DNA of 64,000 nucleotides from an uncultured Gammaproteobacteria bacterium (GTDB lineage: Bacteria; Patescibacteriota; Patescibacteriia; UBA9934), in contig CAYVLY010000003.1 of assembly GCA_964452565.1 (NCBI GenBank), positions 22,555-86,554 of the forward strand, written 5' to 3'. Each line of letters begins with the position of its first letter. The first letter of the stretch is position 1. The notes under the pieces were generated by a model. That model was not told where the DNA came from and did no database searches. It worked only from the letters and a program-made list of their open reading frames with translations. Positions 3,065-64,000 of this stretch are shown piece by piece. The position numbers and the translations under genes are program-made.

Positions 3065-3078
3065 CAAGGTTGAACCTC
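3065..3078. repeat. Solo REP-like palindrome tcaaggttgaacct, a partial copy of the 18-bp RAYT-flanking repeat
   Basis: It matches 14 of 18 nt of the inverted repeats at 28715-28732 and 29436-29453. A second palindrome, gaggtttaacctc, follows immediately. Confidence 0.45.
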
Positions 3079-3100
3079 TGAGGTTTAACCTCCTAATTCT

Positions 3101-5270: not shown

Positions 5271-5801
5271 ATGAAGCCGATTATTGACATGATTCCGGAG
5301 TTTTTGCGTCCGAATCATTTTACTATCGCGCGCATGGTGCTAACGCCAGTTGTTCTGGCTTTATTGTTTTTCGAGGTCTATGATTATGGAGTGCCACTTT
5401 TCATCATCGTAACCTTCACTGATGCTATTGATGGGTCATTGGCACGATGGCGCAGGCAGATAACAAAGTGGGGAACTTTTTATGATCCAGTAGCAGATAA
5501 ACTTTTGATTGGTTCAGTCATCTTACTTATCCTTTTGCAGCACGTAAACCCACTTCTGGGTTACATAATAATAATGCTTGAGGCATTGATGATGATAGGC
5601 GGATGGTATAAGAGACGTAAAGGAGAAAAGTGCCAGGCAAATGTGTGGGGTAAGATCAAGATGCTTTTGCAGGTATCTGGTGTGGTGTTTTTGCTTTTAG
5701 CACTTTGGCTTGGGGTAGATATGTTTGTTCCTATATCAAATGGAACATTAATTTTAGCTGTCTTGTTTGCGGTTGTAGCGCTCTTAACATACAGTTTGTG
5801 A
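5271..5801 (+). CDS. CDP-alcohol phosphatidyltransferase (PgsA-like)
   Basis: The DAIDGSLARWRRQITKWGTFYDPVADK motif (D-G-x2-A-R…G-x3-D-x3-D) is present. The ORF track start at 5028 overlaps the divergent gene, and the internal Met at 5271 fits the family N-terminus. Confidence 0.7.
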   Translation: MKPIIDMIPEFLRPNHFTIARMVLTPVVLALLFFEVYDYGVPLFIIVTFTDAIDGSLARWRRQITKWGTFYDPVADKLLIGSVILLILLQHVNPLLGYIIIMLEALMMIGGWYKRRKGEKCQANVWGKIKMLLQVSGVVFLLLALWLGVDMFVPISNGTLILAVLFAVVALLTYSL

Positions 5802-5802
5802 T

Positions 5803-7416: not shown

Positions 7417-7417
7417 C

Positions 7418-8881
7418 ATGTCAAAGCGCATCATCCAAATTCTAATAATTCTAATACCGGTTGTGATTTTTATCTGGTTACTTTGGATTGATCTGTGCCC
7501 CTCTGGCGTAAAGGAGGTATCAATCGAAGTGGGTGAATCAAGTCCTTACATCTACAGCATACTGCCAGATGAACGAGTATCAGATATTGAGTTTACTGAT
7601 GCGGGTGATGTATTTGTCACGATTGAAGATGAGCCAACATACTTTAGTGTGACATTACCGCAAACAGATTTTGATGAGATAGAGGTGGAACTTGAGTTTG
7701 ATTCATACTTACAGCCTGTGATCGAAGTTGGAGGCTTGGCAGACATCTACTCGGAGAGTTATGACTTAGAGCCGCTTCTAAATACTGAGCTTGATCAGCT
7801 GACATGGTCAGAGATTTCAGATGACGGGGTCAGACTCCTACAACGTGAATACAATTTTGATTCAATACCCGAGTTTTTTGTGAACATGCCTGATCGTGAT
7901 TCAATTGGTGTTTATCACTATGACCTTAAAGAGCCATATCGAATATCTAACTATCGGGCCTCAAGCTCCGAGCAGACGGTCAATGTCTCGTTACGCGGAT
8001 ATCATAAATATCTGACCTATATCAAAGACGAGGATTTTTACCTCGAAGTTGATTATATGGACATGAACCGCACTACTGGCGTAGATGATGCGGTGATTCG
8101 TATTCGAAACGAGCTAGATGAGGTCATGTTCGAATACTTTATCTATGATGATGGAAATGAGTTGGAGAATCAGATTGATTCAGAAGGAACCGCTATCATC
8201 GATCAGTCTAACTGGCCCGAAGGTGTATATTCGATCGAATTATCTGGAACAAGTGATGTGTTCTGGCGGTCGTTAACAACAAGACAGCAGTACATGACGT
8301 TTGTTGGCAAGGTCTATATTGCAGATGATGTTGGGTATCTTGCATCTCCACGTGCAACAAGTTTTTACACAGATGCAAAGCATCTGACACTTGAAACAAC
8401 GCATGCAGATTCGGTTCAAAGCGTACGTATCGGATCCGAATGGGTTGGAGTGTCGGAAAGTCATACAAAGTATAAGTACACAGTTGATGATACTGGTTTA
8501 GTGTATGGATACTCGTCAGTTGGCGACATAAAGATCACTGGAGATGGGAAGTTTGCCTTCACAGGCAGCATGTTTTTCAATCCTGACGCTGTATCACTAA
8601 ATGCCTATTCAGATATCAACGCCTTAGGAATTGACTACATTCTTACAACGTATGATCAGCCTGATCAAAGCGAGGATTGGAGTACTGCCTCGGCAACATT
8701 TGAGATTGGATCACTTGAGAATTTCGATAACTCTACGAAGTTCACGATCTCAACACCTGGTTTGATCGAATTCGGTGCAGCTGTTGATATACACTCGATT
8801 GCGGTTCGATTCTTGAAAGACCCAATGACCTGGCGCGAGATCCTATCGGCAGTTCGAAATCTAATACCATTTGGGATTTAG
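7418..8881 (+). CDS. Hypothetical exported or membrane-anchored protein (single N-terminal TM, large acidic ectodomain)
   Basis: 487-aa ORF with the N-terminal hydrophobic helix IILIPVVIFIWLLW. It is tightly coupled to the upstream GT-C gene. Confidence 0.6.
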   Translation: MSKRIIQILIILIPVVIFIWLLWIDLCPSGVKEVSIEVGESSPYIYSILPDERVSDIEFTDAGDVFVTIEDEPTYFSVTLPQTDFDEIEVELEFDSYLQPVIEVGGLADIYSESYDLEPLLNTELDQLTWSEISDDGVRLLQREYNFDSIPEFFVNMPDRDSIGVYHYDLKEPYRISNYRASSSEQTVNVSLRGYHKYLTYIKDEDFYLEVDYMDMNRTTGVDDAVIRIRNELDEVMFEYFIYDDGNELENQIDSEGTAIIDQSNWPEGVYSIELSGTSDVFWRSLTTRQQYMTFVGKVYIADDVGYLASPRATSFYTDAKHLTLETTHADSVQSVRIGSEWVGVSESHTKYKYTVDDTGLVYGYSSVGDIKITGDGKFAFTGSMFFNPDAVSLNAYSDINALGIDYILTTYDQPDQSEDWSTASATFEIGSLENFDNSTKFTISTPGLIEFGAAVDIHSIAVRFLKDPMTWREILSAVRNLIPFGI

Positions 8882-13573: not shown

Positions 13574-13960
13574 TTGACAGCGGTTATTTTTTGTTACAAG
13601 ATGCCATTGCCGGATGGTCCGGTAGAAGTGCATCTGTTTTTGTAACGGAGGAACAGTGAGACGTTATTATATACAGGAATCGTTCAGTGGCCGTCGGTGG
13701 CTGGTGGATGTGCAAGATGGGGGCGGAAACAAAAAAGCGGGCGAGGCTGCCTGCCGCTTCTTCAGGACACTTCACACACTTCACGACAGCAGTGTAAGCA
13801 TCAAGCCAGCTACGGATGCCGATGAGGTCAAGATGGAGCTCGATCCGGTAACTGGGATACACGGGGTAGTGGCTGCGAAGCAGATTGCTGAGCGGGCCGC
13901 CTAGTCCGAAGCTCAACAACGCGTGACGCTCGGTCCTCTAGGATCGAGCGCTTATTTTTT
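13574..13960 (+). other. GC-rich cassette G2: TTGACA at 13574, GGAGGA-GTG start at 13656 (82-aa ORF to 13904), hairpin terminator 13924-13960. Coding versus structured RNA is unresolved.
   Basis: A roughly 350-nt GC-rich island in the AT-rich backbone. ORFs of similar length occur on both strands. A strong terminator (gacgctcggtcc-tcta-ggatcgagcgc plus T7) ends the unit. Confidence 0.35.
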
Positions 13961-15442: not shown

Positions 15443-15841
15443 ATGTCAGAAGATCCAATGGCCCAGAATGATACCCATAGTGAGTTCGAGATCAGCTGGA
15501 GAAAAGAAATCCTCGGAATGCTTAGGTGGGTCATGATGAACGTGCTCGCTACTCTAGCCGCGGCCACGCCTGGCCTCGCGCTGCTGGCAGCATTCTACTA
15601 TCTCTGGGAGTCGAGCAGTATCTTTGGCCAATGCATCGAGAGATGGGAAGAGCTCGGGCGTCCAGATTACCTGATCGTAGTCCTGTTCATCGTATGGATC
15701 GTGGGTGGGCTTGTCTCAGCGGCATGCACTGGCTTTTCGATCCATTGCTATGACAAAAAGGACCGGACGTTGTTTCTCGCGCTGGGCCTAATTGCCTCTC
15801 TGGCCAGCCTTGCCAGCGCTGTGGGCATCCTCTTCGTCTAG
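15443..15841 (+). CDS. GC-rich small integral membrane protein (cassette G3, about 4 TM helices)
   Basis: 132-aa ORF in a GC-rich segment, followed by a terminator. Confidence 0.55.
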   Translation: MSEDPMAQNDTHSEFEISWRKEILGMLRWVMMNVLATLAAATPGLALLAAFYYLWESSSIFGQCIERWEELGRPDYLIVVLFIVWIVGGLVSAACTGFSIHCYDKKDRTLFLALGLIASLASLASAVGILFV

Positions 15842-34161: not shown

Positions 34162-34221
34162 ATGTCCACAGATTTGTTTGTTCGAACCGCCATAATTGAT
34201 ACAATATACGCACAAATATAC

Positions 34222-37200
34222 ATGAGATATATAAAGACAAGATCACTTGCCTTATTCATTTGTAATGTTTCAGTCATTGCAGTATTTGTGTTTCTTGCTG
34301 GAGTTTTGTGGGTCAATAATGCTGAAGCTGCTGTTGTAACTTGGGAGGGAGATGTTGATAATAATTGGAGCACTGATGGCAACTGGGATACTGGAACGGC
34401 TCCTACTTCGATCGATGTTGCGACATTTGTGGACGCCTATGATGCAAACTGCGATATTGATGCCACGATTAATGTCAAAGGAATTGATATAAACACCGGA
34501 TACGCCGGCACAATCACGCAGCAGACAGGTTCTGATATAACAGTTGGAACTAGTGATTTTGCCCAGGATGCGGGTACATTCACAGGAAGTAGTAATGCTT
34601 CTGACGACATTACCATCAATGGTGACCTTACCGTAGGAAGTAATTTTACATCTACTAAAGGAACTTTGTATTTGGCTGGAATAGTTAATATCACAGGAAC
34701 ATTTACCCACAACAGCGGAACAGTAGAAGCTATTTTTGCTTCTGGAAGTACAGATACTGATTTTAATAATGCGGCGACTTTGTATAACTTCATTGTTAAC
34801 AAATCAAGCTGGGACGTAAATTTGAGCGGTCAGACTATCATAGTGGAAGGCACGCTAACTTTGACAGATGGAGCAGTTAACAATGGCACGATTGAGATGC
34901 AAGGAGTAACAACAACGGTTGGTACAGATGCGGGTAATGGAAATGCTGATATCGAGTTCACACAATCTGCTACCCAGACACTTACATGTAGTGCCACTTA
35001 TTTCCAATATAAGATAACCGTTAACAAAGCCGGAGGATCCTTTGACTTTGGTTCAAATATTGATACATCAACCGATGCCAGTGCAGACTTTGTACTTACA
35101 TTAGGAACAGTTAATCTTGGCAGTTATACATTAAATGTTCATGATGATATACAAATCGATGGCGGAACGTTTAATAGTAATACAGGAGATGTTATAACAG
35201 ATGATCTAAGAATTAATGCTGGTACCTTTGAAGCTCCTGACGCTAGTGGTTCCTTGGCAATTTCTGGCGTCCTTGTGGTAGATGGTACATTCACCCATAA
35301 TGACGGAACAGTTACGCTTGATGACACAACAGCTGCTGGAGATGTAGATATTTATGATGCTGTTACTTTTAAAAACCTTGTATTAAACAAAACGGGCGGC
35401 TGGGGATTGAATTTGAGAACCATAACCATCATTGTGACAGACACATTGACTGTTACAGATGGGTACATCAACAACGGTACGCTCGAGATGCAGGGAGCAA
35501 CAACAACTATTGGCGCTAATGCTGACAATGGAAATGCTGACTTTGAGTTCACACAATCAGCCACTCAGACACTTACGTGTAACGCAACTTACTTCCAATA
35601 CAAAATAATCGTTAACAAAGCCGGAGGATCCTTTGACTTTGGTTCAAATATTGATACATCAACCGATGCCAGTGCAGACTTTGTACTTACATTAGGAACA
35701 GTCAATCTTGGCGGTTATACATTGGATGTTCAAGACCTTATACAAATCGATGGCGGAACGTTTAATAGTAATACAGGAGACATTATAACTGATAATTTGA
35801 CGATTAATGGTGGTACATTTGAAGCTCCTGACGCAAGTGGTTCTTTGACTATTTCCGGAGACCTAAGAGCGACTGGTACATTTACTCACAACGATGGTAC
35901 GGTCACGTTTGATGACACAACAGCTGGCGGAGAAGTAAATATCTATAATGCTGTCACATTCAAAAACCTTGTATTAAACAAAACAAGTGGCTGGGGGTTG
36001 AATCTAAGAACCACAACAACTATTGTTACAAATACACTTACCGTGACAGATGGTTACGTCAACAACGGTACCTTGCAGCTGCAAGGGGCAACAATAACGG
36101 TTAATGCAGATGACAATGGAACTGCTGACTTTGAGTTTACAGGATCTGCTACGCAGACATTTACCTGTGGCGCAACTTACTTCCAAAACAAAATAATTGT
36201 CAACAAAGCCGGAGGATCCTTTGATTTTGGTTCAGATATTGATGTTAGTACTGATGGAAATGCAGATTTTGTGCTTACAACAGGAACAGTCAATCTTGGC
36301 AGTTATACATTAGACCTTCACGATGACTTGCAAATCGATGCCGGAACATTTAATGGTGGTTCAGGGGATATTGTAGCCAATGACGTTTTAATCAATGGTG
36401 GTACATTCGAAGCTCCAGATGCCAGTGGATCATTAACTCTTTCAAAGGTCCTCACCGCTGTTGGCACCTTTTCTCACAACAATGGGACGGTAACATTTGA
36501 TGATACAGTATCCGGTGGAGACGCGGATGTTAATCAGGCAGTTACGTTTAATAATCTCGCAGTTAACAAGCCTGGCTGGGGGCTACAGCTTAGTTCACAG
36601 ACCATTGTTGCTGAAGGGGCACTAACCATGACAGACGGTAGATTCAATAGCGGAACTGTGCAGGCGCAAGGAAATGTTACTGTTGCATCAGCCTGGGATA
36701 CTGATACAAGCACAACATTGCAGTTCACTAGCAGCAATGTGCAAAGCTTTGATTTAACAGGTGCTACAGGTGCTTTTAACGCTGATATTGTTATTAATAA
36801 GTCCGGAGGGTCTGTTCAGCTAGCCTCAGATTTGACAATGAATCAGTCAGACCAAGACCTGACTATTGTTGAAGGAACTTTTGATCTTAATGGTTACGAT
36901 CTTGATATCAACGACCAAGCAAATAGTGACTTCGATATTGAAGATGGAGGGGTACTTAGGTGGCAGGGCTCGGAAACATTGTCAGTAAATACTGGTGACC
37001 CCACGCTTGCATCTGGAAGTCAAGTTATCTATGACCCGACTTCGGGGACTGTCTCACTACAGGATTGGACATATCATCATCTAGAAGTAGTAGGTACTGG
37101 TGGTGCGGTTGTGCAGATGGGATCTACGGAAACTATAGCTGGGAATTTAACAATAACGTCAGGAATACTTGATGTAAACGGCTCTGGTCTCACGGTTAGT

Positions 37201-40200
37201 GGAACATTTAGTAATTTAGGCACATTGAGAATCCAGGGTGATGAGACATTGTCTTTAACCAATGATACTGACAGTGGAACCATTGAATTTGTAGGAGATG
37301 GAGATAGCGCAGCAGATGCTTACAACATGCTTAATTGGACCTTTAATAACCTCTCAGTTAATTTTACTGACAGCGCTGATTCAATCAATGGTCAGTATTT
37401 AACTGGCACAAACACCATGGCAAATAATCTATGGTCATATTGGAATTTGGATGATGGGTCAGGATCAACTGCAACTGACCAGTCAGCAAATACGAATAAT
37501 GGAACACTTAATAATATGGAGGAAGGGGACTGGATTACATCTGATTTAGCGCCTCTTACCTTCACAAATACCAATGGTTTAGTTTTCGATGGCGGAACTA
37601 GTAATGAATATGTTGAATTTACTAGTGATGCAGCCTTCAATGACAGATCAGTTTCACTCTGGTTCAAAACATCTGACACGTCATCCAGGCAGGTGTTATT
37701 TCAAGAGGGAGGGACATCTAATGGAATGAATATTTATATAGATGGAGGAAAAGTTTATGGTGGCTCCTGGGGGAGTGGGATAAATTCAGTATTCCTGTCC
37801 GGAAATATTAGCGCAGATACTTGGACAAATGTAATTTTAACATTTGACGATACTGGAAATCTTGAATTGTTTATAGGCAATGTAAGCCAAGGAACATCTG
37901 CAACTGGTGGATCTATGCCAGCACATACCGCACAAGATTCTTTGGCGGCAAAGCTAGGTGATACAAAGTATCACGATGGTACCAGTAATGGTAACGGTCA
38001 TTATTTCAATGGTCGCATGGACGAGGTCAGAGTTTATGAGCGCGTTGTTACTAGTGCCGAACGAATAGCACTTGCGGCAGGAAGTAATGATAGCCGTACT
38101 TCAACACCACTGAGCTCTCTAACAGTTAATAGTAATTTTACTCAGGCTGGCGGAACCTTTACTGCACCAACAGGAACAATGACGGTGAAGGGGAACTTTG
38201 CTAATACTGGTGGAACATTTACACACAACAGCGGAACAGTAGCATTGTCTGATTCAGGTGTTGCAACAACTGTCTCTGGAAACACGACATTTAACAACCT
38301 GTCAATGACGACTAATGGAGATACAATCACATTTACGCATACTACAACAACAACTGTGGCAGGTACATTTACAGTAACTGGTGCGTCAGGTCAGCAAATA
38401 ACTCTAGCTAGTTCAGACCCAGGTACCACTTGGCTTTTAAATGTTTCCGGAACAAGTTCCGTTGACTACGTACATGTTACAGATTCAGATGCAAGTGGTG
38501 GCAATGCCATCACACATGTTGATGTTGCTCATTCTACTGATAATGGGAATAATACCAACTGGGGCTTTAATGTTGCTCCAACAGTTACATCTGTTACAGC
38601 AGTTCAAGAATCAGACGGAACTGTCACAATTACATTCATCATGGATGATGGCGATGATGATAATACCCTAGAAGCCCTTGTTCAATACAATGTAGGTGGA
38701 GGGAATACAAAGGCGACTCTTAGCGAGACAGATGGAGATACTTCTGCAACATATGGAGATCCAAAAGTAGAGAATGATGATACTTATCAAGTTGGTAATG
38801 CCTCTGGATATATAACAAGTTCATCTGGAGCTAATACAGTGACGACGCAATGGAATGCATCTACAGATGAAACAGGGATAGATATTTCTACTGCAACCAT
38901 CACGGTTACTCCATACGATGGAACTGAAGCAGGAACACCATCTTCTAGTTCAAACTTTTCATTAGATCTCACGGCTCCAACAGTATCATCAGCGTCCTAC
39001 AAGGATACAAATGCAGATGGAACAGTGGATCGAGTGGATATTGTGTTTAATGAAAACGTTTCACTGGGAAGCTATAATACAGCAGACTGGTCATTCTCAG
39101 AACAAGGAACAATAACATTAGATGACTCTGGAGCGTCTGCTTCTACCGATACCATATTATTAACAGTCACGGCAGATGCTAACGAAACAGGAGGAGCAAC
39201 CGCGCCAACAGTGCTATATACAAATGCTGCGGGTAGATTAACAGATGCATACAATAATGCGGTTGCAACATTTGGAGCTGCGCAGACAGTTACTGACGCT
39301 GCTTCTCCGCGCATGAACCAGATTGGGTATAGGGATTCAGATGCAGATGGGCAGATAGATTCCGCAGTTCTAGCATTCTCAGAGACGGTAACCATTGTTT
39401 ATGACGATGGAGATTGGGTTACGGTAGCTAATGACCTGACAAACATGGACGTTTCAGCGATTGCTTCAGGAAACGGAACATCAAGTGTCACATTTACTGC
39501 AACAGCCGCAGCAGACATCACAGGGGGCTCTACACAACCAACAATTGCGTTTACTCCAACAACTGGATCTATTCAGGACTCAGCTACAAACGCTGCAACA
39601 GCATTTAGTGCAACATCATTTGTAGACGAGGCAAAGCCAGTAATCTTAACCTCAACTCCAACGGATACATCTACTGTTCAATCACGAACGAATGCTATTG
39701 TCTGGAATTTCTCAGAGGCAATGGCTACTGGTGGAGGATGGGTGCATGCCTCAGAGTTTACCTCGACCCCAAACCCAGGAGGATGGGGAACTGCTTCTTG
39801 GAGTAATAGTGATAAAACTGTAACTGTTTCACATGCTCCATTCTTATGTATTACAGATTATTCAATAGCGACAGATGATACTGTTATAGCTGCCGCTGCG
39901 GGGGAGACTGGATACACAGCATTGGATGACTCTGCTTCAGCCCCAATTGGAACAGCTTTAACCTTCACGACCATGACTTGCACAGGGACAAGCTCAAGCC
40001 AGGCGTCTCAAGTCGCAGATACAATGAGTTATCCTGTTACAGATGATATTGATGTTGCAGATGGTGCAGGAGCGGCTGATGAGGATGAATGTTCTGGCGT
40101 AGAGCCAGGGGCAAAGATTAAATTATCCTGGTCAGTGACTTCTAGTGTTGGGTTTGTGAATCTGTACTATTCAACAGATCAGGGTGAGACTTACGCCACC

Positions 40201-40998
40201 ATTGCAAGTCAAGCTACAAACTCTGGAAGTTACTCATGGATAGCGCCAGAAGGTCTTTCTGAGGCATCTGATATACAATTCAAGATTGAGGGAACTGACC
40301 TTGTTGAAATAACAAGTACTTATGAAACTGGATTAATGGATATATGTGAGGTAGAAGAAGTGGATGAAGATGACGATGCTGTCGATGATGCCGATGACAC
40401 AGCAGATGCCGCTGATGGTGAAGAAGAGGCAGAGGAGATTGTTGTACCGATTGGAATGGCGATTGAATCAGCCTTTGGTGATAAATGGACAAAGGAAGTG
40501 GCAAAAAGAGAAATAGATACGTCAGAGTTCCCAGTACAGGAAGTTGCCATTGGTTCACTTGTGAAGCTCGTAGATGATGGAGACCCAGCAACGCAGGCGG
40601 ATTCAGCAGTCTATTACGTTGGCGCCGATCAACGAAGACATCCATTCCCCAATGAATCGGTGTACAGTACATGGTTCACGACTTTTCACGGTATAAAAAC
40701 CATTGAACAGGAAACAATGTCCGCGATTCCAATGGGACCCATGGTTACTTATAGGCCAGGTTCGACCCTTGTGAAGTTCCCGTCTGTAAATAAGGTTTAT
40801 GCTATTGATGCTGACGGTTCACTGCGATGGATCGCAACAGAGGAGCTTGTAGAAGAATTGTATGGAGACGAGTGGAATAAATTTATAGTAGATATTTCAG
40901 AAGCCTTCTATTCAAGTTACGAATTTGGAACCAGCTTAAGCTCTATGGAGGACATGACCTGGGATACAGTGATGGCATTATACGCAGCGAATAAGTAG
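34222..40998 (+). CDS. Giant cell-surface protein (about 2259 aa): N-terminal signal anchor, three 198-aa tandem beta-rich repeats, LamG/concanavalin-like lectin domain, further Ig-like repeats, acidic D/E stretch
   Basis: Single uninterrupted ORF with hydrophobic N-terminus IAVFVFLAGVLWV. A LamG_3-like region starts at WSYWNLDDGSGSTATDQSANTNNGTLNN and ends at FNGRMDEVRVYERVVTSAERIALAAG. DEDDDAVDDADDTADAADGEEEAEE lies near the C-terminus. Confidence 0.8.
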   Translation: MRYIKTRSLALFICNVSVIAVFVFLAGVLWVNNAEAAVVTWEGDVDNNWSTDGNWDTGTAPTSIDVATFVDAYDANCDIDATINVKGIDINTGYAGTITQQTGSDITVGTSDFAQDAGTFTGSSNASDDITINGDLTVGSNFTSTKGTLYLAGIVNITGTFTHNSGTVEAIFASGSTDTDFNNAATLYNFIVNKSSWDVNLSGQTIIVEGTLTLTDGAVNNGTIEMQGVTTTVGTDAGNGNADIEFTQSATQTLTCSATYFQYKITVNKAGGSFDFGSNIDTSTDASADFVLTLGTVNLGSYTLNVHDDIQIDGGTFNSNTGDVITDDLRINAGTFEAPDASGSLAISGVLVVDGTFTHNDGTVTLDDTTAAGDVDIYDAVTFKNLVLNKTGGWGLNLRTITIIVTDTLTVTDGYINNGTLEMQGATTTIGANADNGNADFEFTQSATQTLTCNATYFQYKIIVNKAGGSFDFGSNIDTSTDASADFVLTLGTVNLGGYTLDVQDLIQIDGGTFNSNTGDIITDNLTINGGTFEAPDASGSLTISGDLRATGTFTHNDGTVTFDDTTAGGEVNIYNAVTFKNLVLNKTSGWGLNLRTTTTIVTNTLTVTDGYVNNGTLQLQGATITVNADDNGTADFEFTGSATQTFTCGATYFQNKIIVNKAGGSFDFGSDIDVSTDGNADFVLTTGTVNLGSYTLDLHDDLQIDAGTFNGGSGDIVANDVLINGGTFEAPDASGSLTLSKVLTAVGTFSHNNGTVTFDDTVSGGDADVNQAVTFNNLAVNKPGWGLQLSSQTIVAEGALTMTDGRFNSGTVQAQGNVTVASAWDTDTSTTLQFTSSNVQSFDLTGATGAFNADIVINKSGGSVQLASDLTMNQSDQDLTIVEGTFDLNGYDLDINDQANSDFDIEDGGVLRWQGSETLSVNTGDPTLASGSQVIYDPTSGTVSLQDWTYHHLEVVGTGGAVVQMGSTETIAGNLTITSGILDVNGSGLTVSGTFSNLGTLRIQGDETLSLTNDTDSGTIEFVGDGDSAADAYNMLNWTFNNLSVNFTDSADSINGQYLTGTNTMANNLWSYWNLDDGSGSTATDQSANTNNGTLNNMEEGDWITSDLAPLTFTNTNGLVFDGGTSNEYVEFTSDAAFNDRSVSLWFKTSDTSSRQVLFQEGGTSNGMNIYIDGGKVYGGSWGSGINSVFLSGNISADTWTNVILTFDDTGNLELFIGNVSQGTSATGGSMPAHTAQDSLAAKLGDTKYHDGTSNGNGHYFNGRMDEVRVYERVVTSAERIALAAGSNDSRTSTPLSSLTVNSNFTQAGGTFTAPTGTMTVKGNFANTGGTFTHNSGTVALSDSGVATTVSGNTTFNNLSMTTNGDTITFTHTTTTTVAGTFTVTGASGQQITLASSDPGTTWLLNVSGTSSVDYVHVTDSDASGGNAITHVDVAHSTDNGNNTNWGFNVAPTVTSVTAVQESDGTVTITFIMDDGDDDNTLEALVQYNVGGGNTKATLSETDGDTSATYGDPKVENDDTYQVGNASGYITSSSGANTVTTQWNASTDETGIDISTATITVTPYDGTEAGTPSSSSNFSLDLTAPTVSSASYKDTNADGTVDRVDIVFNENVSLGSYNTADWSFSEQGTITLDDSGASASTDTILLTVTADANETGGATAPTVLYTNAAGRLTDAYNNAVATFGAAQTVTDAASPRMNQIGYRDSDADGQIDSAVLAFSETVTIVYDDGDWVTVANDLTNMDVSAIASGNGTSSVTFTATAAADITGGSTQPTIAFTPTTGSIQDSATNAATAFSATSFVDEAKPVILTSTPTDTSTVQSRTNAIVWNFSEAMATGGGWVHASEFTSTPNPGGWGTASWSNSDKTVTVSHAPFLCITDYSIATDDTVIAAAAGETGYTALDDSASAPIGTALTFTTMTCTGTSSSQASQVADTMSYPVTDDIDVADGAGAADEDECSGVEPGAKIKLSWSVTSSVGFVNLYYSTDQGETYATIASQATNSGSYSWIAPEGLSEASDIQFKIEGTDLVEITSTYETGLMDICEVEEVDEDDDAVDDADDTADAADGEEEAEEIVVPIGMAIESAFGDKWTKEVAKREIDTSEFPVQEVAIGSLVKLVDDGDPATQADSAVYYVGADQRRHPFPNESVYSTWFTTFHGIKTIEQETMSAIPMGPMVTYRPGSTLVKFPSVNKVYAIDADGSLRWIATEELVEELYGDEWNKFIVDISEAFYSSYEFGTSLSSMEDMTWDTVMALYAANK
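34850..36450 (+). repeat. Three tandem intragenic repeats of about 594 nt (198 aa); copies 1 and 2 are near-identical at the DNA level
   Basis: For example, 35016-35110 and 35610-35704 are identical except for single bases. A third, more diverged copy begins near 36201. Confidence 0.7.
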
Positions 40999-41120: not shown

Positions 41121-41149
41121 TTGACAAAAGCACAATTTTGTGCTATTTT
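41121..41149 (+). promoter_or_regulatory. Consensus promoter TTGACA-17-TATTTT with the perfect palindrome GCACAATTTTGTGC in the spacer
   Basis: TTGACA at 41121-41126, palindrome at 41130-41143, and -10 at 41144-41149. AAGGGGGAA RBS then ATG 41222. Confidence 0.5.
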
Positions 41150-41221
41150 TTGGCTAGTTTCTTTCTTAAGGTTTCTAAACGGCTAACAACGGCCAATATT
41201 AAAAAGCAAAAAGGGGGAACG

Positions 41222-41536
41222 ATGTTCTACTTCGATATCCTGGTCAGCGGTGTGGTGTCCACGGCGATCTCGCCATACGTCTGGGCGCTGCTCTACCTGC
41301 TGTTCATGATGCGCATGCGCCATAGCGTTGATGAGTTCGGCGCATTCGTTCTCTGGGCGCTCGTTTTGCTGGCCGGATGCCTGGTTGGCGTCTGGGCAGA
41401 AAATGCCGGGTGGAGTGAGCACAGGCAGATGTCACAAGAAGACTACGTTGTGATGATAGTCTTCGCGCTGGTGGTACCGCTGCTCATCGGCATGGTGCTG
41501 GCAGGTGTCGCGCGCATGACATCCACCCACCAGTGA
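41222..41536 (+). CDS. GC-rich small integral membrane protein (cassette G4, 104 aa, 3 TM helices)
   Basis: GC-rich ORF with an RBS-supported start, flanked by its own promoter and terminator. Confidence 0.55.
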   Translation: MFYFDILVSGVVSTAISPYVWALLYLLFMMRMRHSVDEFGAFVLWALVLLAGCLVGVWAENAGWSEHRQMSQEDYVVMIVFALVVPLLIGMVLAGVARMTSTHQ

Positions 41537-44942: not shown

Positions 44943-45497
44943 TCAGATGGAGTAGCCCATGCAGGTGGACCAGCGGATGGCGCGCTTGATCACGGGGCTG
45001 CGGTAGCCGGCATGTGGTGTGGTGACCACCTCCAGGCTGAAGAGCACTGCGGCCACGGGGATGGCCAGGAATATGATGGTGGCTGCGACGTTGTACACGT
45101 ACCACGCCGGTTCGAAGTAGGCTGGGATGCTCTCCAGTAGCCCGATGTCCACCAGTACCCTGGTTTCCCACCAGAAAACCGAGTACTCGATTGTCGGCTG
45201 GATGTTCCAGCCGATGGCTTCGAGCCACTGGCTGGGCGCGTAGATGGTGAAGAAGAACAGGCTGACTGCCCAGATGAGCGCACCGACGGCCAGGCAGCTG
45301 ACGAACTCGACCACACCGTTCACCACTTTCATGGTGCTGTTCCGGTCTTCGTAGTTCTCCCTGAGGATCACGTCCAGCTGGGCTGCCGCTACCGCAATGA
45401 ACGGGAATAGGATCACAGAGCAGACCAGGCCCCAGACCAGGGACCAGAGGGCGCCGACACGGCGCAGGACGGAGATGAGCATTGTTTTGCCTTTCAT
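44943..45497 (-). CDS. GC-rich integral membrane protein (cassette G5; start 45497 or 45482)
   Basis: GC-rich ORF with a GC-rich hairpin and T-rich 3' flank. An upstream promoter is on the - strand. Confidence 0.5.
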   Translation of the reverse strand: MKGKTMLISVLRRVGALWSLVWGLVCSVILFPFIAVAAAQLDVILRENYEDRNSTMKVVNGVVEFVSCLAVGALIWAVSLFFFTIYAPSQWLEAIGWNIQPTIEYSVFWWETRVLVDIGLLESIPAYFEPAWYVYNVAATIIFLAIPVAAVLFSLEVVTTPHAGYRSPVIKRAIRWSTCMGYSI

Positions 45498-45586
45498 GCT
45501 CGGGTTCTCAGAGGGCATATTCATTATACACTCAGAGAACGCGAGCACTGATAAATTGCTCACACATTATGAAATATCAACAAACT

Positions 45587-47611: not shown

Positions 47612-47875
47612 ATGCAAGAAGGTAGTAGAGAACAGGGGAAGTCACGTTATGAAAGTATGAGTAACGCTGATTTGGTTGGCGAATGGGAGATGTCTTATTC
47701 AGATTGGGATCAGGCTATGAGTCTTGAGGGGGCTGACAGCTATGACGAGGAAGCAGTAGAACGAGAGTATCAGGTTATGGCCGAGATCCAGCCATTACTC
47801 GCAGATCGAGGTCTTTGGGATGAGAAAGCAAAAAAGCCAAGTAAAAGTAGTGTTGAATTGGAGGGGGGAGAATAA
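47612..47875 (+). CDS. Small acidic hypothetical protein (87 aa)
   Basis: ORF followed by a clear terminator (47899-47924 aagagcca-ctaaca-tggctctt plus tt). Confidence 0.4.
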   Translation: MQEGSREQGKSRYESMSNADLVGEWEMSYSDWDQAMSLEGADSYDEEAVEREYQVMAEIQPLLADRGLWDEKAKKPSKSSVELEGGE

Positions 47876-49942: not shown

Positions 49943-50026
49943 GTGTCACCCCTGCGCAGGCAGGGGTCCATCGAAAAGTCGAGTTCGATATATATCGATG
50001 GATCCCGGCTCAGGGGCCGGGATGAC
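49943..50026 (+). repeat. Three-hairpin GC-rich intergenic element (family X/Y, + orientation)
   Basis: Sequence gtgtcacccctgcgcaggcaggggtccatcgaaaagtcgagttcgatatatatcgatggatcccggctcaggggccgggatgac. It is about 80% identical to the reverse complement of 57094-57175. Confidence 0.6.
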
Positions 50027-50069
50027 GAATGAATTTAGACGGAGGATTGAGGGGGGGAGATACTTACTT

Positions 50070-52197: not shown

Positions 52198-52971
52198 ATG
52201 CGTGACATTATTACCGAACTTATACATTTAGGATTTTCACCCAATGAGGCCAAGGTGTATTTGGCAGCATTGGAGTTGAGCGTGTCACCTGCACAACGAA
52301 TTGGTGATAAGGCTGGTGCTAATCGTGCAACAACCTATGCGGTGCTTAAGAGTTTGATAAAGAAGGGGTTGATTACTTCAGTAAATGTCGATGGCACACA
52401 ACACTTTAGGGCAGAGGCCCCGCAGTCGATTTTGACATTATTTGAGCTTCAGCAGCGGGAGTTAGAGAAGCGAAAGCATAAGGCACATCAAACAATCCAG
52501 CGTTTGCAGGTGTTTCACAATACTGATGGCAGTAAACCTAAGATTCGTTATTTTGAGCGTGTTACGGGGCTTCGTGCTATGCAGGCAGAGTATGAGATGT
52601 TGGATGAGGATATGATTCAGATTGTGGGACTGGATACTTTGAAAAAGCTCTATGATCCATCTTCAGATGGAGAGCATGCAAAAGAGTTGAAGCGTAAGGA
52701 TCGAAAAGTGAAGACCATTATTGCAACGCAAGAAGATACATCGCATTTAGATGAGCTTGATAACTTTCAATATGTTGTTGTTGATCCAGATGTTGTAAGT
52801 ATCAAAGGTGAGATGACAGTTTGCGGCGATCGGGTTGTTATGTTTTCTTACTCATCGAGTATCATCGCCGTAGAGGTTCAGTCAAAGGAGATTGCAGATA
52901 CTGCAAGGGCAACACTTGAGCTTGCTTGGAATGAGGCTGTTAGGCTTTCGAGGATAGGAAAGGAAGATTAG
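52198..52971 (+). CDS. TrmB-family transcriptional regulator
   Basis: N-terminal wHTH (LGFSPNEAKVYLAALELSVSPAQRIGDKAGANRATTYAVLKSLIKKGLI) and a C-terminal TrmB-like domain. Confidence 0.65.
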   Translation: MRDIITELIHLGFSPNEAKVYLAALELSVSPAQRIGDKAGANRATTYAVLKSLIKKGLITSVNVDGTQHFRAEAPQSILTLFELQQRELEKRKHKAHQTIQRLQVFHNTDGSKPKIRYFERVTGLRAMQAEYEMLDEDMIQIVGLDTLKKLYDPSSDGEHAKELKRKDRKVKTIIATQEDTSHLDELDNFQYVVVDPDVVSIKGEMTVCGDRVVMFSYSSSIIAVEVQSKEIADTARATLELAWNEAVRLSRIGKED

Positions 52972-52980
52972 TTATCGCTT

Positions 52981-53053
52981 GGGGGTATTCCATCCCCCAA
53001 ACCCCCTGGCCATGTTTCTTTGCTGGCCCAAAGAAATATGGAAAAGAAAAGGC
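52981..53053 (+). repeat. Two-hairpin element A (gggggtattccatccccc … ccatgtttctttgctggcccaaagaaatatgg …), left direct repeat of the GC-rich island
   Basis: About 85% identical over 73 nt to 55857-55929 in the same orientation. Confidence 0.6.
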
Positions 53054-53267
53054 CTTTGCGAGTAGTCCCGCGGCTTACTAGAACACAGACACCTGCCGCC
53101 AATTTTTTTATTAGAGGTATTAATGGTTGGGCTGATCGATAATCTCCAGCCGTAGGGTTGGCGTCGGGTCGCAAGGCCCGACACCATCAGGGACGTAGGG
53201 CAACTGCACGCACTCAAGATTAGCTGGGGAAAATTGGCTGGGGACTGAGTTTGAGGATACAGACAAA

Positions 53268-53295
53268 ACACCACCCAATCGGGTGGTGTTTTTTG
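53268..53295. terminator. Bidirectional terminator acaccaccc-aatc-gggtggtgt flanked by A/T runs
   Basis: Perfect 9-bp stem with aaaa upstream and tttttt downstream. Confidence 0.55.
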
Positions 53296-53389
53296 CGCTG
53301 TTCACAAGTTTACTTATGAACACTGCGTGTTGGCAGAGCACAGTACTAGGTACTGGCCCTGCCTGTGAGACGGGGGAAGGGACGGGGGA

Positions 53390-54343
53390 CTAGGCCGCAG
53401 CCGAGTGCTTGCGATCGAGCTCAGCGATCCGGTTGTGGAACAGCTTCTCGAGCTCGCGCTGCTGGGCTTCGAGTTCCTCGATCGCCCTGGGCGGGATGGG
53501 GAGTTCCTCATCGAGACGGTGCTGGATCATCTTTTCGAGATCACCCTCTGAGGTGCCCAGCCAGGGCATCCGGTGCTTGTCCTCGACGTGCCGGTTGGTG
53601 TAGGGCATGTAGCTGGCCCACCTCGGGCCGCGGTAGTTCCGTTCTGCGCCGCGACGGGCGCGCGGCCTGTGGCCGTGGAGCCGTGCCACATGGCAGTCCT
53701 TGGACACGTGACGGCTCTTGCGAGCCTGGTGGGGCTCGGCCGCGATACGCTCGGCCTCGAGATGAGCGGCATAGCGGGCGATGGCATCGGCATACTCGAC
53801 CTCGTAGTCGATATCGCCTTCGATCATGTCTCCTCTGTACACCCTGACCATGTCTCCTGCCAGCCAGATCAGGTGCTCTTGCGCGAGCTGGACCCGACGC
53901 TCTTCGTTTTCTCCGATCCAGTTCTCCATGTCGTCCCAGACCTCATCTTCGTCGTACTCGTCGAGCTCGTATTCCTCGTCGTCCAAGGCCTCGCGGCCGA
54001 AGTCGAAGTGCTCGATGAGGACCTGGTCAGTGGAGGGGTCGACGCGATCGGGGTGGAAGGGGTCAGCCATCTGGACGTGCATGTCGTACAAGTCCATGTG
54101 GTTGTTCATGGCTACCTCGCCGAAGTTGGGCGAGGTTCCGAAGCTGCGCACTCCATTCTCGTTGGTGACCCACCAGGCCGGCTTGCGGCCGGTGATCTGG
54201 TTTTTCTCGTCTGCCCACCGCTCGAGCTCCTGGGCCCGACCTTCTGCGATGATCTGCTGCCGCTGTCGTTCACCTTCCAGATCCAGGGTCATGACGACGT
54301 TTGGGACTGGCAGGTGTCGAACTTCTGATGCTGCTGTTGCCAT
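53390..54343 (-). CDS. GC-rich hypothetical protein (cassette G6, 317 aa, acidic D/E-rich segment)
   Basis: Long ORF in a GC-rich island, with AAGGAG 9 nt before the ATG. All other frames show shadow ORFs only. Confidence 0.5.
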   Translation of the reverse strand: MATAASEVRHLPVPNVVMTLDLEGERQRQQIIAEGRAQELERWADEKNQITGRKPAWWVTNENGVRSFGTSPNFGEVAMNNHMDLYDMHVQMADPFHPDRVDPSTDQVLIEHFDFGREALDDEEYELDEYDEDEVWDDMENWIGENEERRVQLAQEHLIWLAGDMVRVYRGDMIEGDIDYEVEYADAIARYAAHLEAERIAAEPHQARKSRHVSKDCHVARLHGHRPRARRGAERNYRGPRWASYMPYTNRHVEDKHRMPWLGTSEGDLEKMIQHRLDEELPIPPRAIEELEAQQRELEKLFHNRIAELDRKHSAAA

Positions 54344-54895
54344 TTCCGATATCTCCTTCGGTGTGGCTTCTGGTGGAAAGAAAACCCCGGGATGGGGCGT
54401 CTATTTGTGGTGGTTTCCCACAGCAATCTGGAGGTGATGTGGTGCTCTGAGACAGGCTCAGAACATGTGCCCAGCTAGGCTGGGCTCATAGGGTAGTGAC
54501 TCCCGAAGGAATATATCCCGAGAATGTTCGGGTATGTACTAGGAGTTAGCCGAAGCCAAGTCTTAGAACTTGAACATTCAATCCTCCTGAGGCTTTGTAA
54601 TTTCAGAAGAAATTCATCAACCTCCAGGTTGCTGTAGAAAACGCCTCAGATGTGATCTCCTAATCACATCCAAAGCGTTTTTTTTGTTCTCTCTCAAATT
54701 GTTGTCATCCTGAACGAAGTGAAGGATCCACTCAAGTAGATTCTTCGCTACGCTCAGAATGACAGGTGACATAGCCACTCAGAGCACACAAGTGAACTTG
54801 TATTCTCTGCGCGACCCGCATACAGGCGATCTTGAGACAAGGCTCGTGATCGGTGATCCTGCATGCGAGACGGAAGGGGGTGAAGGGGCGGCGGA

Positions 54896-55612
54896 CTAGC
54901 GGGGCGCCTGGCTGAGCTCGCGGATGCTGGCCGTCAGACCGCCATCCTGGGCCTGGGCGACCTTGCGGGTGGGGGTCAGCCGCTGGAAGTCCAGGTCGCT
55001 CTCCTTGCCACCGACCTTCGCAGGCAGGGCAGCGGAGAACTTGCGGATCTGGGCGAACACCTCATCGGTGAGGATGCCCAGCGCCACGAAGCACTCACCG
55101 ACCTCGCGGTAGCTCCGGCGCACACCCAGCTTCTTGCTCTGGGCGATGGCGTAGAGCGTGTTCGCCGCGGCCTGCTTGTTGCTGGTCAGGACGACCTTCC
55201 CGGCCTTCTGGTCCATCGCGTAGGTGTAGGGGCACTTGCCGCTGTGCTGCCACTTGTCGCCCCTCTTGAACCGCCGGTAGGTGCCGGCCTTGGATGCGGC
55301 ATCCAGGATGGCCTTGCAGGCTTGGTTCTGGTGCGAGAGGAAGACGGCCACATCGTAGCGGGCCTTGGCAGCCAGGCCAGCCTTGTCACCTGCGTCGTGC
55401 ATCTTCTTGAGGCACAGCTGCTCGGCGACCAGGCGCGCGGGCTCGAGCTCCTGTACCATCTGCTCCATTGCCGCCTCGTCACTCTTGACCAGGTTGGCGA
55501 TGGCCAGTAGGGCGCGCTTCAGCTGCTTCTCGGCCTCGGTCAGCTCATCCCACTTTTTGTAGATGAAGAGGGTGTCCTGGCGGGGCTGCGTGTTCTTGGT
55601 TGCTTCGGCCAT
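54896..55612 (-). CDS. GC-rich hypothetical protein (cassette G7, 239 aa from MAEATKNT)
   Basis: AAGGAG RBS 7 nt before ATG 55612 and a consensus promoter about 150 nt upstream. Confidence 0.5.
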   Translation of the reverse strand: MAEATKNTQPRQDTLFIYKKWDELTEAEKQLKRALLAIANLVKSDEAAMEQMVQELEPARLVAEQLCLKKMHDAGDKAGLAAKARYDVAVFLSHQNQACKAILDAASKAGTYRRFKRGDKWQHSGKCPYTYAMDQKAGKVVLTSNKQAAANTLYAIAQSKKLGVRRSYREVGECFVALGILTDEVFAQIRKFSAALPAKVGGKESDLDFQRLTPTRKVAQAQDGGLTASIRELSQAPR

Positions 55613-55763
55613 GATGGCACTCCTTGTTCTGGCTGGGTGACCCCTCGACCTCCTTGGTCGGGTGGTCGGGGGTTGGATGGAAGCCCCGGGGGTGGGGCAT
55701 GCTTGGGGAAACAAGTGAAGGGAACGCATTTATATTGGCTTTCTGGCCAAATGCGAACGTTGT

Positions 55764-55792
55764 AATATAGCACAAAAAAGCGGTTTTGTCAA
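55764..55792 (-). promoter_or_regulatory. Consensus promoter on the - strand: TTGACA-aaaccgcttttttgtgc-TATATT
   Basis: -35 at 55792-55787 and -10 at 55769-55764, with a 17-nt spacer. Confidence 0.5.
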
Positions 55793-55856
55793 GAGCAAAC
55801 CATGGATTTGGGGCCAAAGTTAGTAAAAAAAATTGTAAAGCTCTGAGTGATCAGTT

Positions 55857-55929
55857 GGGGGTACTCCGTCCCCCTGGACCCCCAGGCCATATTTCTTTGC
55901 TCACCCAAAGAAATATGGAAAAGAAAGGG
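55857..55929 (+). repeat. Two-hairpin element B, right direct repeat of the GC-rich island
   Basis: Sequence gggggtactccgtccccctggacccccaggccatatttctttgctcacccaaagaaatatggaaaagaaaggg. Confidence 0.6.
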
Positions 55930-56158
55930 TGTTGGCCCATACTGCGCTCGTCCAGGTATACCTCAGGCATACAAACGGGCATTTTGGCGATCCAATTTGT
56001 AATTAAAGGATAAATTGGACTCAAAATGCTATTCCGTTCTCCTGCCCGAGGATAAGCCTGGATGTACTCGTGGTGGGCCTGAGTCTGGGTCCTGGGTTCC
56101 CTTCGACTCGCCCTGCTCGCTCAGGACCTTCGGCTGCATTCCGTGGTACAATACCCCT

Positions 56159-57082
56159 ATGAATCCCTCGTTTGAGAGCATTATTGGCCATAAAAAGCAG
56201 TGTGATTATCTAAAGCATGTCCTAGAGTCTGGAAATGTCGCACATGCTTATTGTTTTTCTGGTTCAAAAGGATTGGGCAAGGCAACGATTGCAAAGGAGT
56301 TTGCTGAGCGATTATTAAGTCTAGAGACTGACAAACTTCAAACTTCACCAAATGTAACAATCGTAAGTGATGAGAATGGGAAGATCGGAGTTGAAGAGAT
56401 CCGAGCGCTCAAGCAGACCTTGTCACTTTCTACTTTTGGTGGAGGCTGGAAGATTGCAATTATCAACGGCGCTGATTCAATGACAACCTCTGCGCAGAAT
56501 GCCTTACTAAAAACATTGGAAGAACCAACACCTCAGACTGTTTTGATCCTCATCTCTCATAACTCAGATGCACTTTTGGAAACCATTCGTTCGCGCGTTG
56601 CGACTATTGAATTCAATCTTTTGCCAGTTGATCAAATAGTTGATGCCCTTGAAGATAGGTTTGGAGTAAAAAAACAAAAAGCACAGCTTATTGCGCAGCT
56701 TAGTATGGGTAGAGCAGGAGTTGCATTTGTTTGTTCTGACGAAGAGAACTGTAAGGAGCAAGAAGAAAAGGCACAGGAGGCTCTTCAGTTTTTGCAAGAC
56801 CCACTTTACGAGCGAATGCGTAAGATTGAGTTGATCACAAAAACCAAAGAAGATCGTCAACGAGTGATCCAAAACATGGTAGAATTATGGAGAATGTGGC
56901 TGCATGAAGGTTTGCTGTACTCTTTGGGTATGAGCTCTGCTGATCAGGTTAAAGATCTAGCAGGACAAAGCTCAGGTACTCAGATCAAGAAAGCACTCTC
57001 AACTCTTCATGAATGTGAGCGTGCACTGGATCGCAATGTTCAACCAGCACTTGCCCTACAAGTGTTTGCGTCGAGTTTTTAA
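56159..57082 (+). CDS. holB: DNA polymerase III delta' subunit (AAA+ clamp-loader)
   Basis: HAYCFSGSKGLGKATIAKEFAERLL Walker-A-like region and the SRV-like SRVATIEF. The ORF-track start at 56015 lies in a GC-rich non-coding-looking leader; the Met at 56159 directly follows TGGTACAAT. Confidence 0.75.
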   Translation: MNPSFESIIGHKKQCDYLKHVLESGNVAHAYCFSGSKGLGKATIAKEFAERLLSLETDKLQTSPNVTIVSDENGKIGVEEIRALKQTLSLSTFGGGWKIAIINGADSMTTSAQNALLKTLEEPTPQTVLILISHNSDALLETIRSRVATIEFNLLPVDQIVDALEDRFGVKKQKAQLIAQLSMGRAGVAFVCSDEENCKEQEEKAQEALQFLQDPLYERMRKIELITKTKEDRQRVIQNMVELWRMWLHEGLLYSLGMSSADQVKDLAGQSSGTQIKKALSTLHECERALDRNVQPALALQVFASSF

Positions 57083-57093
57083 ACAACTAATCT

Positions 57094-57175
57094 GTCATCC
57101 CGGCCGTAGAGCCGGGATCCATCGAAAATCAATTTCGATAAGTGATGGACCCCCGATCGGGGTCGGGGGTGACAC
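57094..57175 (-). repeat. Three-hairpin GC-rich intergenic element (family X/Y, - orientation)
   Basis: It is the reverse complement of the element at 49943-50026 and lies between the holB stop and the lipoprotein start. Confidence 0.6.
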
Positions 57176-63186: not shown

Positions 63187-63292
63187 TGTTAATTTTTTAA
63201 GCTTGCGCGGGATCCCCCTGCGTCAAGTGGGCTTTGCCCAAAAGGCCCCTTTACAACGTTTTTGAAGGCAGGAAGCTTTCAATGAAGGGAAC

Positions 63293-64000
<708 letters not shown>

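Follow-up and report, generated by a model that had tools for sequence, protein, structure and literature searches.

The DNA analysed here is a 64-kb window (the whole stretch, positions 22,555 to 86,554 of contig CAYVLY010000003.1, assembly GCA_964452565.1), and our subject is a block of high guanine-plus-cytosine (GC) content between a gene for a TrmB-family regulator and holB. The block is bracketed by two copies of a 73-nt hairpin module, A (52981-53053) and B (55857-55929), both on the plus strand, and carries two genes, G6 and G7, on the minus strand. The GC content of the A-B interval is 0.58-0.65, compared to 0.42-0.44 in the background. A first-pass annotation had taken the two modules for attL/attR-like scars of a site-specific insertion or else for members of a dispersed palindromic family.

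The left neighbour of the block is the TrmB-family gene (trmB, 52198-52971, plus strand; PF01978, E=1e-11), whose orthologues are 74-87% identical, and the right neighbour is holB, encoding DNA polymerase III delta-prime (56159-57082, plus strand; PF13177, E=4e-40). Both keep their position in all relatives and were used as synteny anchors. A begins 9 nt past the stop codon of trmB and B ends 229 nt ahead of holB, in agreement with the earlier description (9 and about 230 nt). That only two GC-rich minus-strand genes lie between the modules was also confirmed. G6 (53390-54343) encodes an acidic protein of 317 amino acids (aa) and G7 (54896-55612) a protein of 238 aa, both preceded by an AAGGAG ribosome-binding site. 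The GC contents at the three codon positions (GC1/GC2/GC3) are 0.70/0.38/0.79 for G6 and 0.62/0.47/0.86 for G7, and because of this coding-type periodicity both are regarded as real high-GC coding sequence.

G7 has a promoter (55764-55792, minus strand) with the sequence TTGACA-17-TATATT and a TG extension, which matches the consensus at 11 of 12 positions and is conserved in the related contigs L011, L014, L017 and L022. B is placed about 65 nt upstream of its -35 box. A terminator-like hairpin after G7 (54637-54686, minus strand), read from the sequence as A-tract, GATGTGAT-loop-ATCACATC extended by CGC/GCG, and T-tract, is also present in L014. The G6 leader (54344-54636, minus strand) contains two tiny upstream open reading frames (ORFs), each preceded by a Shine-Dalgarno (SD) sequence and encoding MNFF* and xxQVLRLGxG*, respectively, followed by several hairpins (four or five) and a further SD sequence. 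The first mini-ORF reads ATG AAT TTC TTC TGA, the second TTG...CAA GTT CTA AGA CTT GGC yTC GGC TAA, with the stop codon held in frame. A separate promoter for G6 is not visible in the leader. Its layout resembles control by a leader peptide or an attenuator, with transcription from the G7 promoter continuing into G6. Between G6 and A, a bidirectional intrinsic terminator (53263-53300; A-tract, CACCACCC-loop-GGGTGGTG, T-tract) was likewise read from the letters; it is conserved in L014, L017 and L018 and serves G6 and probably trmB.

The first-pass annotation had noted that no integrase gene is present. Profile searches of G6 and G7 against Pfam, PHROGs, PADLOC and NCBIfam gave no family match and no recombinase domain, and profile searches against the PDB gave no significant match. 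Single-sequence AlphaFold models of G6 and G7 are poor, with predicted local distance difference test scores (pLDDT) of 41 and 49. In a first homology search of 5.8e9 proteins both returned only themselves, and an exhaustive HMMER search of 1.84e9 representatives found only four other members for G7.

A and B have the same orientation, and a global alignment shows them to be identical at 63 of 73 positions (86%; also aligned with MAFFT), so their description as two same-orientation double hairpins of about 85% identity is correct, as are the coordinates. Hairpin 1 (52981-52998 in A, 55857-55874 in B) has the form GGGGG-N8-CCCCC and is separated by a C-rich linker, which provides a second C-run, from hairpin 2 (53010-53041 and 55887-55918). 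The latter has 13-bp arms, CCATrTTTCTTTG and CAAAGAAATATGG, with a 6-nt loop, and is followed by a tail AAAAGAAA(A)GG, which is A-rich and occupies 53042-53053 in A. All stems are intact in both copies: nine of the ten differences between A and B are found in loops, linkers or tail, and the tenth replaces a G-T wobble with an A-T pair. As a single strand with DNA parameters, A folds into both hairpins (z = -2.3), and B forms hairpin 2 (z = -4.3), while its minimum-energy fold pairs the G-run with the second C-run in place of hairpin 1. By chance, the window would be expected to contain 0.03 copies of hairpin 1 and 0.00 of hairpin 2.

The window and its relatives were searched for module copies with a covariance model built from hairpin 2 and the tail. 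In the window, A scored 71.6 bits and B 69.3 bits, the next match reaching 14 bits, and a further 9.5 kb of the same genome contained no copy. The module is therefore present twice in about 73 kb, with 2.9 kb between the copies, and in this span the 73-mer did not prove to be a frequent, generic repeat. In Rfam at the gathering threshold the sole match of the window was tRNA-Lys, and permissive scans gave only chance-level hairpin matches (for mir-1 about 20 bits versus a gathering score of 45.6). We found nothing relevant in the literature on the motif sequence or on palindromic repeats of the Candidate Phyla Radiation (CPR), and no match in the viral contigs scanned for the motif.

Two simple functions of the module were considered and gained no support. 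An ORF can be opened at the ATG inside hairpin 2 (MEKK.../MQKK...), but the downstream frames are unrelated between A and B. In a scan for intrinsic terminators, hairpins 1 and 2 of A and of B were not called; the only call within the modules fell on the linker of B, at a small hairpin of 5 bp (55873-55886, CCTGGACCCCCAGG), and the overall number of calls was in line with the shuffled expectation (6 found versus 4.3 expected). The module is thus not a plain intrinsic terminator, the actual terminators being separate (53263-53300 and 54637-54686).

The history of the locus could be read from its relatives. TrmB homologues put the window lineage close to Candidatus Uhrbacteria (CPR), and we compared the trmB neighbourhoods of L011, L014, L017 and L018 (TrmB 74-84% identical) and of the strain variant L012. 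The variable region of L014 is identical in L015 and L016, and these three were counted as one lineage; L011, L014/15/16, L017 and L018 come from independent samples and assemblers. All relatives show the gene order MreB-GT4-TrmB-block-HolB-BNR-RRF-GlyRS with a block of 2.6-3.2 kb. Where the contig is long enough, the block has a GC content of 0.54-0.59 and the flanks of 0.40-0.46, with the same two-block profile as in the window. An empty site, in which trmB is joined to holB without the block, was not found in any relative with a readable junction (L011, L014=L015=L016, L017 and L018). An insertion at an attachment site had predicted a trmB-holB junction with one repeat; this check gave the opposite result, as the block is present in all relatives, with no repeat or with an A-type copy only.

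When ORFs were scored by GC3 periodicity, two minus-strand genes with a GC3 of 0.79-0.94 were detected at the positions of G6 and G7 in every lineage. G7 aligns end to end with its counterparts in L014 (44% identity, E=5e-58) and L011 (41%, E=8e-58). For G6 the orthologues are 24-29% identical, with E-values of 5e-7 to 8e-5 against a small local set of 8 ORFs; they have the same position and strand, an acidic centre in common and two shared motifs, IDYEVEYA..I.RYAAHL and GR.W. Most of them end in AAA. The C-termini of the G6 family are alanine-rich (SAAA, EAAA, EASA, IAA; window 53390-53401 and orthologues), which is reminiscent of degradation-tag-like ends.

Public gene calls in the blocks of the relatives are inconsistent in strand. 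Because the callers often took an antisense shadow ORF or an over-long start, the real proteins are missing from the databases and look like orphans. Such calls are 5510-6472(+) and 7119-7790(+) in L014, 10360-11178(+) in L011, 4754-5548(+) in L017 and a 277-aa version of G7 at NCBI. The orphan outcome of the first homology searches therefore mostly reflects wrong-strand calls in the relatives. Direct repeats, foreign GC content and lack of homologues are together insufficient to call a genomic island; here the orphans result from gene calling and the repeats are younger than the genes.

The relative ages follow from the distribution and the divergence of the modules. L011, L012 and L018 have a single A-type copy, 5-9 nt past the TrmB stop codon, and L014-L017 and L022-L024 have no copy. 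Upstream of holB the module is absent in the relatives, and the equivalent region of L011, L014 and L017 is without B. A is 77% identical to its orthologue in L018 and 75% to that in L011, and the trmB DNA is 75-76% identical; since A has diverged as much as the adjacent trmB, it was vertically inherited. B is 86% identical to A and only 70-71% to the A-orthologues of L018 and L011, so B is a lineage-specific copy of A or was converted by A. The gene pair predates the repeat pair, because relatives with no or one module carry both genes. Our preferred reading, to which we assign a probability of roughly 70%, is that the GC-rich segment is not an insertion bounded by attachment sites but an ancestral gene pair beside a duplicated hairpin module.

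The composition of the two genes has outlasted extensive sequence change. At fourfold sites of identical amino acids, the third-position identity of G7 between lineages is 0.33-0.41, compared to a saturation expectation of 0.33-0.34, and the fourfold sites of trmB are likewise saturated. Of these sites about 87% are G/C in G7 and about 30% in trmB. As the silent sites are saturated and yet about 87% G/C, the GC-richness of the island genes is read as actively maintained. Over the same divergence the non-coding scaffold is 73-82% identical. It comprises the G7 promoter with the start of its 5' untranslated region (UTR), the 3'-flank motifs of G6 and G7 and above all the G6 leader, which is the best-conserved stretch of the island in five lineages, and it can be recognised even beside a G7 homologue of 35% identity. 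In the 3' flanks of both genes the same motif, CTAGTCCsCCGyCCCTT...CCGTCTCrCAkGCAGG, begins at the stop codon. Judged from these alignments, the locus is an expression scaffold that is conserved while the two coding sequences within it change quickly and yet stay GC-rich. In a reduced genome of 43% GC, standard amelioration models of horizontal transfer do not predict clade-specific genes whose silent sites are still about 87% G/C after divergence to saturation and whose non-coding scaffold is better conserved than their proteins. Such a composition could be kept up by selection on the mRNA or, at a recombination hot spot, by GC-biased gene conversion, and the same process might be behind the other scattered GC-rich genes of the genome.

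Six more single GC-rich ORFs (GC3 0.57-0.82) are found in the window among genes with a GC3 of 0.33-0.45, at 1801-2985, 13584-13919, 15443-15841, 41138-41536, 44943-45563 and 63251-64000. None has a detectable family and several encode small membrane proteins. At least three of them (15443, 41138 and 44943) are equipped with a consensus-like promoter of their own (TTGACA ... TG.. TAT...) and at least two with a terminator; the ORF at 63251 lies in tandem DxDGDGYG-type repeats and its frame and strand are provisional. In the flanks read, no module copy was found beside the other GC-rich genes of the window (at least 6-7), so the 73-mer is not a general arrival route for such genes.

Hairpin 2 is under selection as a hairpin. 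In eight instances 99% of its positions are paired, and four of the 13 pairs are altered on both sides, for example from A-T to C-G or T-A. None of 500 shuffles matched the observed covariation score, and slid controls were far lower. The inner eight pairs and the tail do not vary across the eight instances. Hairpin 1 also covaries among orthologues (GGGGG/CCCCC, GGAGG/CCTCC and GGGGTG/CACCCC), and the A orthologues at the same position in L011/L012 and L018 show compensatory changes in both hairpins.

In L011 and L018, as in the window, about 210 nt of conserved sequence follow directly after A. This non-coding extension (53054-53262, plus strand) can be aligned to L011 and L018 and shows nested long-range helices with a variable middle. 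In the consensus fold of the A unit the C-run of the linker pairs with a G-run about 240 nt downstream, a helix GCCAATTTT/AAAATTGGC covaries to GGAAATTTT/AAAATTTCC, and the fold terminates in the bidirectional terminator at 53263-53300. The z-scores are -2.9 and -3.1 on the two strands, which fold equally well. We therefore interpret A as the 5' domain of a non-coding structure that extends over about 320 nt in the 3' region of trmB.

Outside the clade the module core is rare. A degenerate hairpin-2 pattern matched five loci from three genomes in 596 Gb of species-representative genomes, where by our estimate less than one is expected by chance. Two contigs belong to one metagenome-assembled genome (MAG) of the Oscillospiraceae, and three come from two Margulisiibacteriota MAGs. 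All five loci carry an AAAAGrAA tail, although the search pattern did not include it, and an adjacent GC hairpin. An oriented pattern gave two further matches in one JGI metagenome. Between copies of the same genome, bounded units are shared over 63 nt (L009/L010, 98% identical), 98 nt (L007/L008) and 390 nt (L004/L005), and the flanks are unrelated. The genomes of other phyla have at least two copies each, and the covariance model adds weaker, diverged copies nearby. In the aligned instances, the core consists of an inner stem, TTTCTTTG/CAAAGAAA, and an AAAGAAA tail, neither of which varies, and of an outer stem that covaries. The module behaves like a rare, portable intergenic family, a low-copy discrete unit of 65-100 nt present in several phyla, and is a candidate for a new structured motif whose distribution across phyla is unusual. 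The proposal of a dispersed palindromic family thus holds as far as the core recurs as a discrete low-copy unit in other phyla, but the module is not a frequent repeat, and A is conserved in place.

Two of the distant loci have a particular layout. In a Margulisiibacteriota MAG (L006, 4108-5554), two inverted module copies and 106-nt inverted repeats surround one AT-rich DUF5655 gene, a cassette-like arrangement that sits between two BamA-like genes. In the Oscillospiraceae MAG (L004, 5700-6923) the module is found in an intergenic region rich in hairpin repeats, among them a 39-nt hairpin unit repeated 12.5 times in tandem (6433-6923) and, at 5828-5875, a related palindrome of the form 14-N6-14.

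We propose that the block is an old, vertically inherited minus-strand locus of G7 promoter, G7, terminator, conserved leader, G6 and bidirectional terminator, which has been kept between trmB and holB throughout an Uhrbacteria-like CPR clade. The G6 and G7 proteins evolve fast, with an extreme GC3 sustained independently in each lineage and with promoter, leader and 3' flanks under purifying selection. A would be a functional element in its place, the 5' domain of the longer unit that ends at the shared terminator, retained with base-pair-preserving substitutions while the silent sites of trmB became saturated. B is a recent duplicate that comprises no more than the initial 73 nt of this unit. 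The data establish that the island is ancestral, that B is younger than A, that the hairpin is under selection, and that its copies are few but recur in several phyla. We infer that the module works as a folded single strand bound by a sequence-specific factor, for A most likely as RNA from the 3' region of trmB, and that a trans-acting copying process, and not chance, gives rise to new copies. Only tentatively do we go as far as the combined statement, that an active process keeps the coding sequences of this scaffold at a GC3 of about 0.8-0.9 in a 43% GC genome, and that the hairpin-plus-tail core, with its U-rich/A-rich inner stem and a tail repeating the 3' arm, is an undescribed structured element, recognised by a conserved factor and copied as a unit of 65-100 nt in CPR, Margulisiibacteriota and Firmicutes.

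Several points speak against this explanation. The low copy number rests on the roughly 73 kb of source genome, and in the cross-phylum search the pattern fixed the inner stem, so that its invariance is partly built in. No enzyme for the copying was identified; the sole Y1 transposase seen, in L011, has unrelated flanking hairpins. The folds indicate neither the acting strand of the module nor an RNA or DNA form, both strands being predicted to fold alike, and wobble and mismatch positions favour opposite strands in A and in L011. B sits between two divergent promoters, which fits an RNA role poorly, and may not be transcribed. On the side of the genes, the orthology of G6 is weak, as it combines weak sequence similarity with position.

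Among the alternatives, the one that survives best is still rather unlikely: A and B could be paired regulatory sites, operator or insulator copies that frame G7-G6 and are bound as double-stranded DNA, for example by the adjacent TrmB-family regulator. Palindromic arms with eight invariant inner pairs are the kind of site that a dimeric winged-helix protein would recognise, every relative has an adjacent TrmB-family gene, and both the position of B upstream of the G7 -35 box and the intact stems of the two copies would fit. However, relatives keep the promoter and the leader without B, and two lineages also without A. The changes in the outer stem keep the pairing and not the identity of the bases, which suggests a folded single strand, and no TrmB-family gene was noticed near the motif in other phyla, where the neighbour genes are only partly characterised.

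A further alternative is a non-autonomous element moved by a hairpin-recognising HUH/Y1 enzyme, either of the type of IS200/IS605 with its palindrome-associated transposable elements (PATEs) or of repetitive extragenic palindromic (REP) sequences with their REP-associated tyrosine transposases (RAYTs), the mobile unit being the module or the whole A-to-B segment. We consider this unlikely. The ends of IS200/IS605 are subterminal hairpins in direct orientation, as known in general, and like in the PATEs there are direct-orientation hairpins at the two ends of a segment without a transposase inside. A hairpin with an invariant, adjacent single-stranded tail resembles an HUH substrate and could serve as recognition unit, several genomes contain copies of the module as a discrete unit, and Y1 transposases exist in the clade. 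The A-to-B segment as the unit is excluded, as the block is ancestral and present in relatives that lack one or both modules. For the module itself, the 5' flanks show no conserved cleavage tetranucleotide, a linked TnpA is missing, the copy number is very low, and A is kept in place under selection, which is not expected for an inert transposon end. The Y1 gene mentioned above (L011, 2992-3603) encodes a 203-aa transposase of the IS200/RAYT type in the GT2-DUF4012 gap and is flanked by GGGCTTAGCCC-type hairpins; as these differ from the module, a link between the two was ruled out. The counterpart of this spot in the window (47612-47875) carries an unrelated 87-aa acidic ORF.

Very improbable is the integration of a circular GC-rich element between trmB and holB, by which a 73-nt site was duplicated as attL and attR and whose integrase was lost or acted in trans. 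It would account for direct repeats with sharp boundaries around DNA of foreign composition, and hairpin 2, as read from its sequence, has the 12/13-6-12/13 geometry of a tyrosine-recombinase core site. Against it, both genes are at the same locus in all relatives, even in those with zero or one repeat; B arose after the lineage had parted from L018 and L011, but the genes were there before it parted from L017; and G6 and G7 have no recombinase domain, with TrmB and HolB as the neighbours. Hairpin 2 as a chromosomal dif site was rejected, as the GC skew is positive on both sides without a change of sign. The arrangement does recall Xer-dependent elements, the integrative mobile elements exploiting Xer (IMEX) and the pdif modules of Acinetobacter plasmids, in which integrase-less gene modules are bracketed by inverted arms around a 6-nt spacer, and the L006 locus also shows an inverted pair around a single gene. 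However, no GC-skew switch marks the present locus, the site is not unique like dif but occurs twice here and at least twice per genome elsewhere, and the stems covary like a hairpin and are not fixed like protein-binding half-sites. The arms of the module are not known to resemble published dif, difSL or difH sites.

Just as improbable is an ordinary high-copy REP or a chance pair that flanks the island by coincidence: the genome holds several other small palindromic element types and at least 6-7 other GC-rich genes of the window lack such flanks, but there are only two copies in about 73 kb, 2.9 kb apart, and only five matching stretches (three genomes) in the 596 Gb plus two in JGI metagenomes.

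The module nevertheless has features of several known systems. Like REPs and bacterial interspersed mosaic elements (BIMEs), it is a short imperfect intergenic palindrome, often located just past a stop codon and copied as a discrete unit, and REPs can act as RNA-stabilising or terminator-like structures. In contrast to them it has a very low copy number and a core conserved across phyla, whereas REPs are species-specific; it lacks a GTAG-type 5' tetranucleotide (the 5' flanks are CTT, GTT, TAC, TTT, CCT and ACT), A is held at one site over saturating divergence, and the invariant single-stranded tail repeats one arm of the stem. It differs from a miniature inverted-repeat transposable element (MITE), as its ends (GGGGG... 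and ...AAAGG) are not mutual inverted repeats and no clear target-site duplication is seen at the junctions of B.

Integron attC sites are likewise single-stranded hairpin recombination sites that bound promoter-independent cassettes of odd composition. Here, however, RYYYAAC/GTTRRRY boxes are absent, two short local hairpins replace one long bulged hairpin, G7-G6 are served by a promoter of their own, and there is no cassette variability of the integron kind. Structured 3' UTRs and small RNAs derived from 3' UTRs with an intrinsic terminator share with A the location directly past a stop codon, followed by nested helices and a strong terminator, and the purifying selection with compensatory changes. 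However, no Rfam family matches A, and the partial copy B is found where no transcript is expected.

A different family of palindromes is also present in the intergenic DNA of the clade. It is of the type GTCATyCyG...CrGGATGAC or CATCCCGGC...GCCGGGATG and has sites in the window at 54704-54763, 49995-50035 and 57085-57125, in L017 at about 3070-3100 and in L011/L012 after the A unit. The site at 54704-54763 is an element in the G7-G6 spacer, of the type GTCATTCTGAGCG...GGATCC...CAGGATGAC and unrelated to the module; related palindromes are found in L017 and L011/L012. Independent Logan contigs break at two such palindromes, at about 54703-54731 and about 57095. L011 (9139 onward) and L012 (4400-4912) have an identical TrmB and an identical A unit and split right after a GTCATCC...GGATC palindrome, beyond which one contig continues into the GC-rich G6 orthologue and the other into an AT-rich ORF without a family. 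Strains thus differ at this locus, but the point of variation has no relation to the 73-mer.

Two further features of the window were noted. An extended -10 box of holB, TGgTACAAT (56144-56161), ends 6 nt before the ATG in the window and in L011, which suggests that the holB mRNA is leaderless. In addition, a 2278-aa ORF (34162-40998) contains at least three tandem repeats of about 590 nt (34834-36410).

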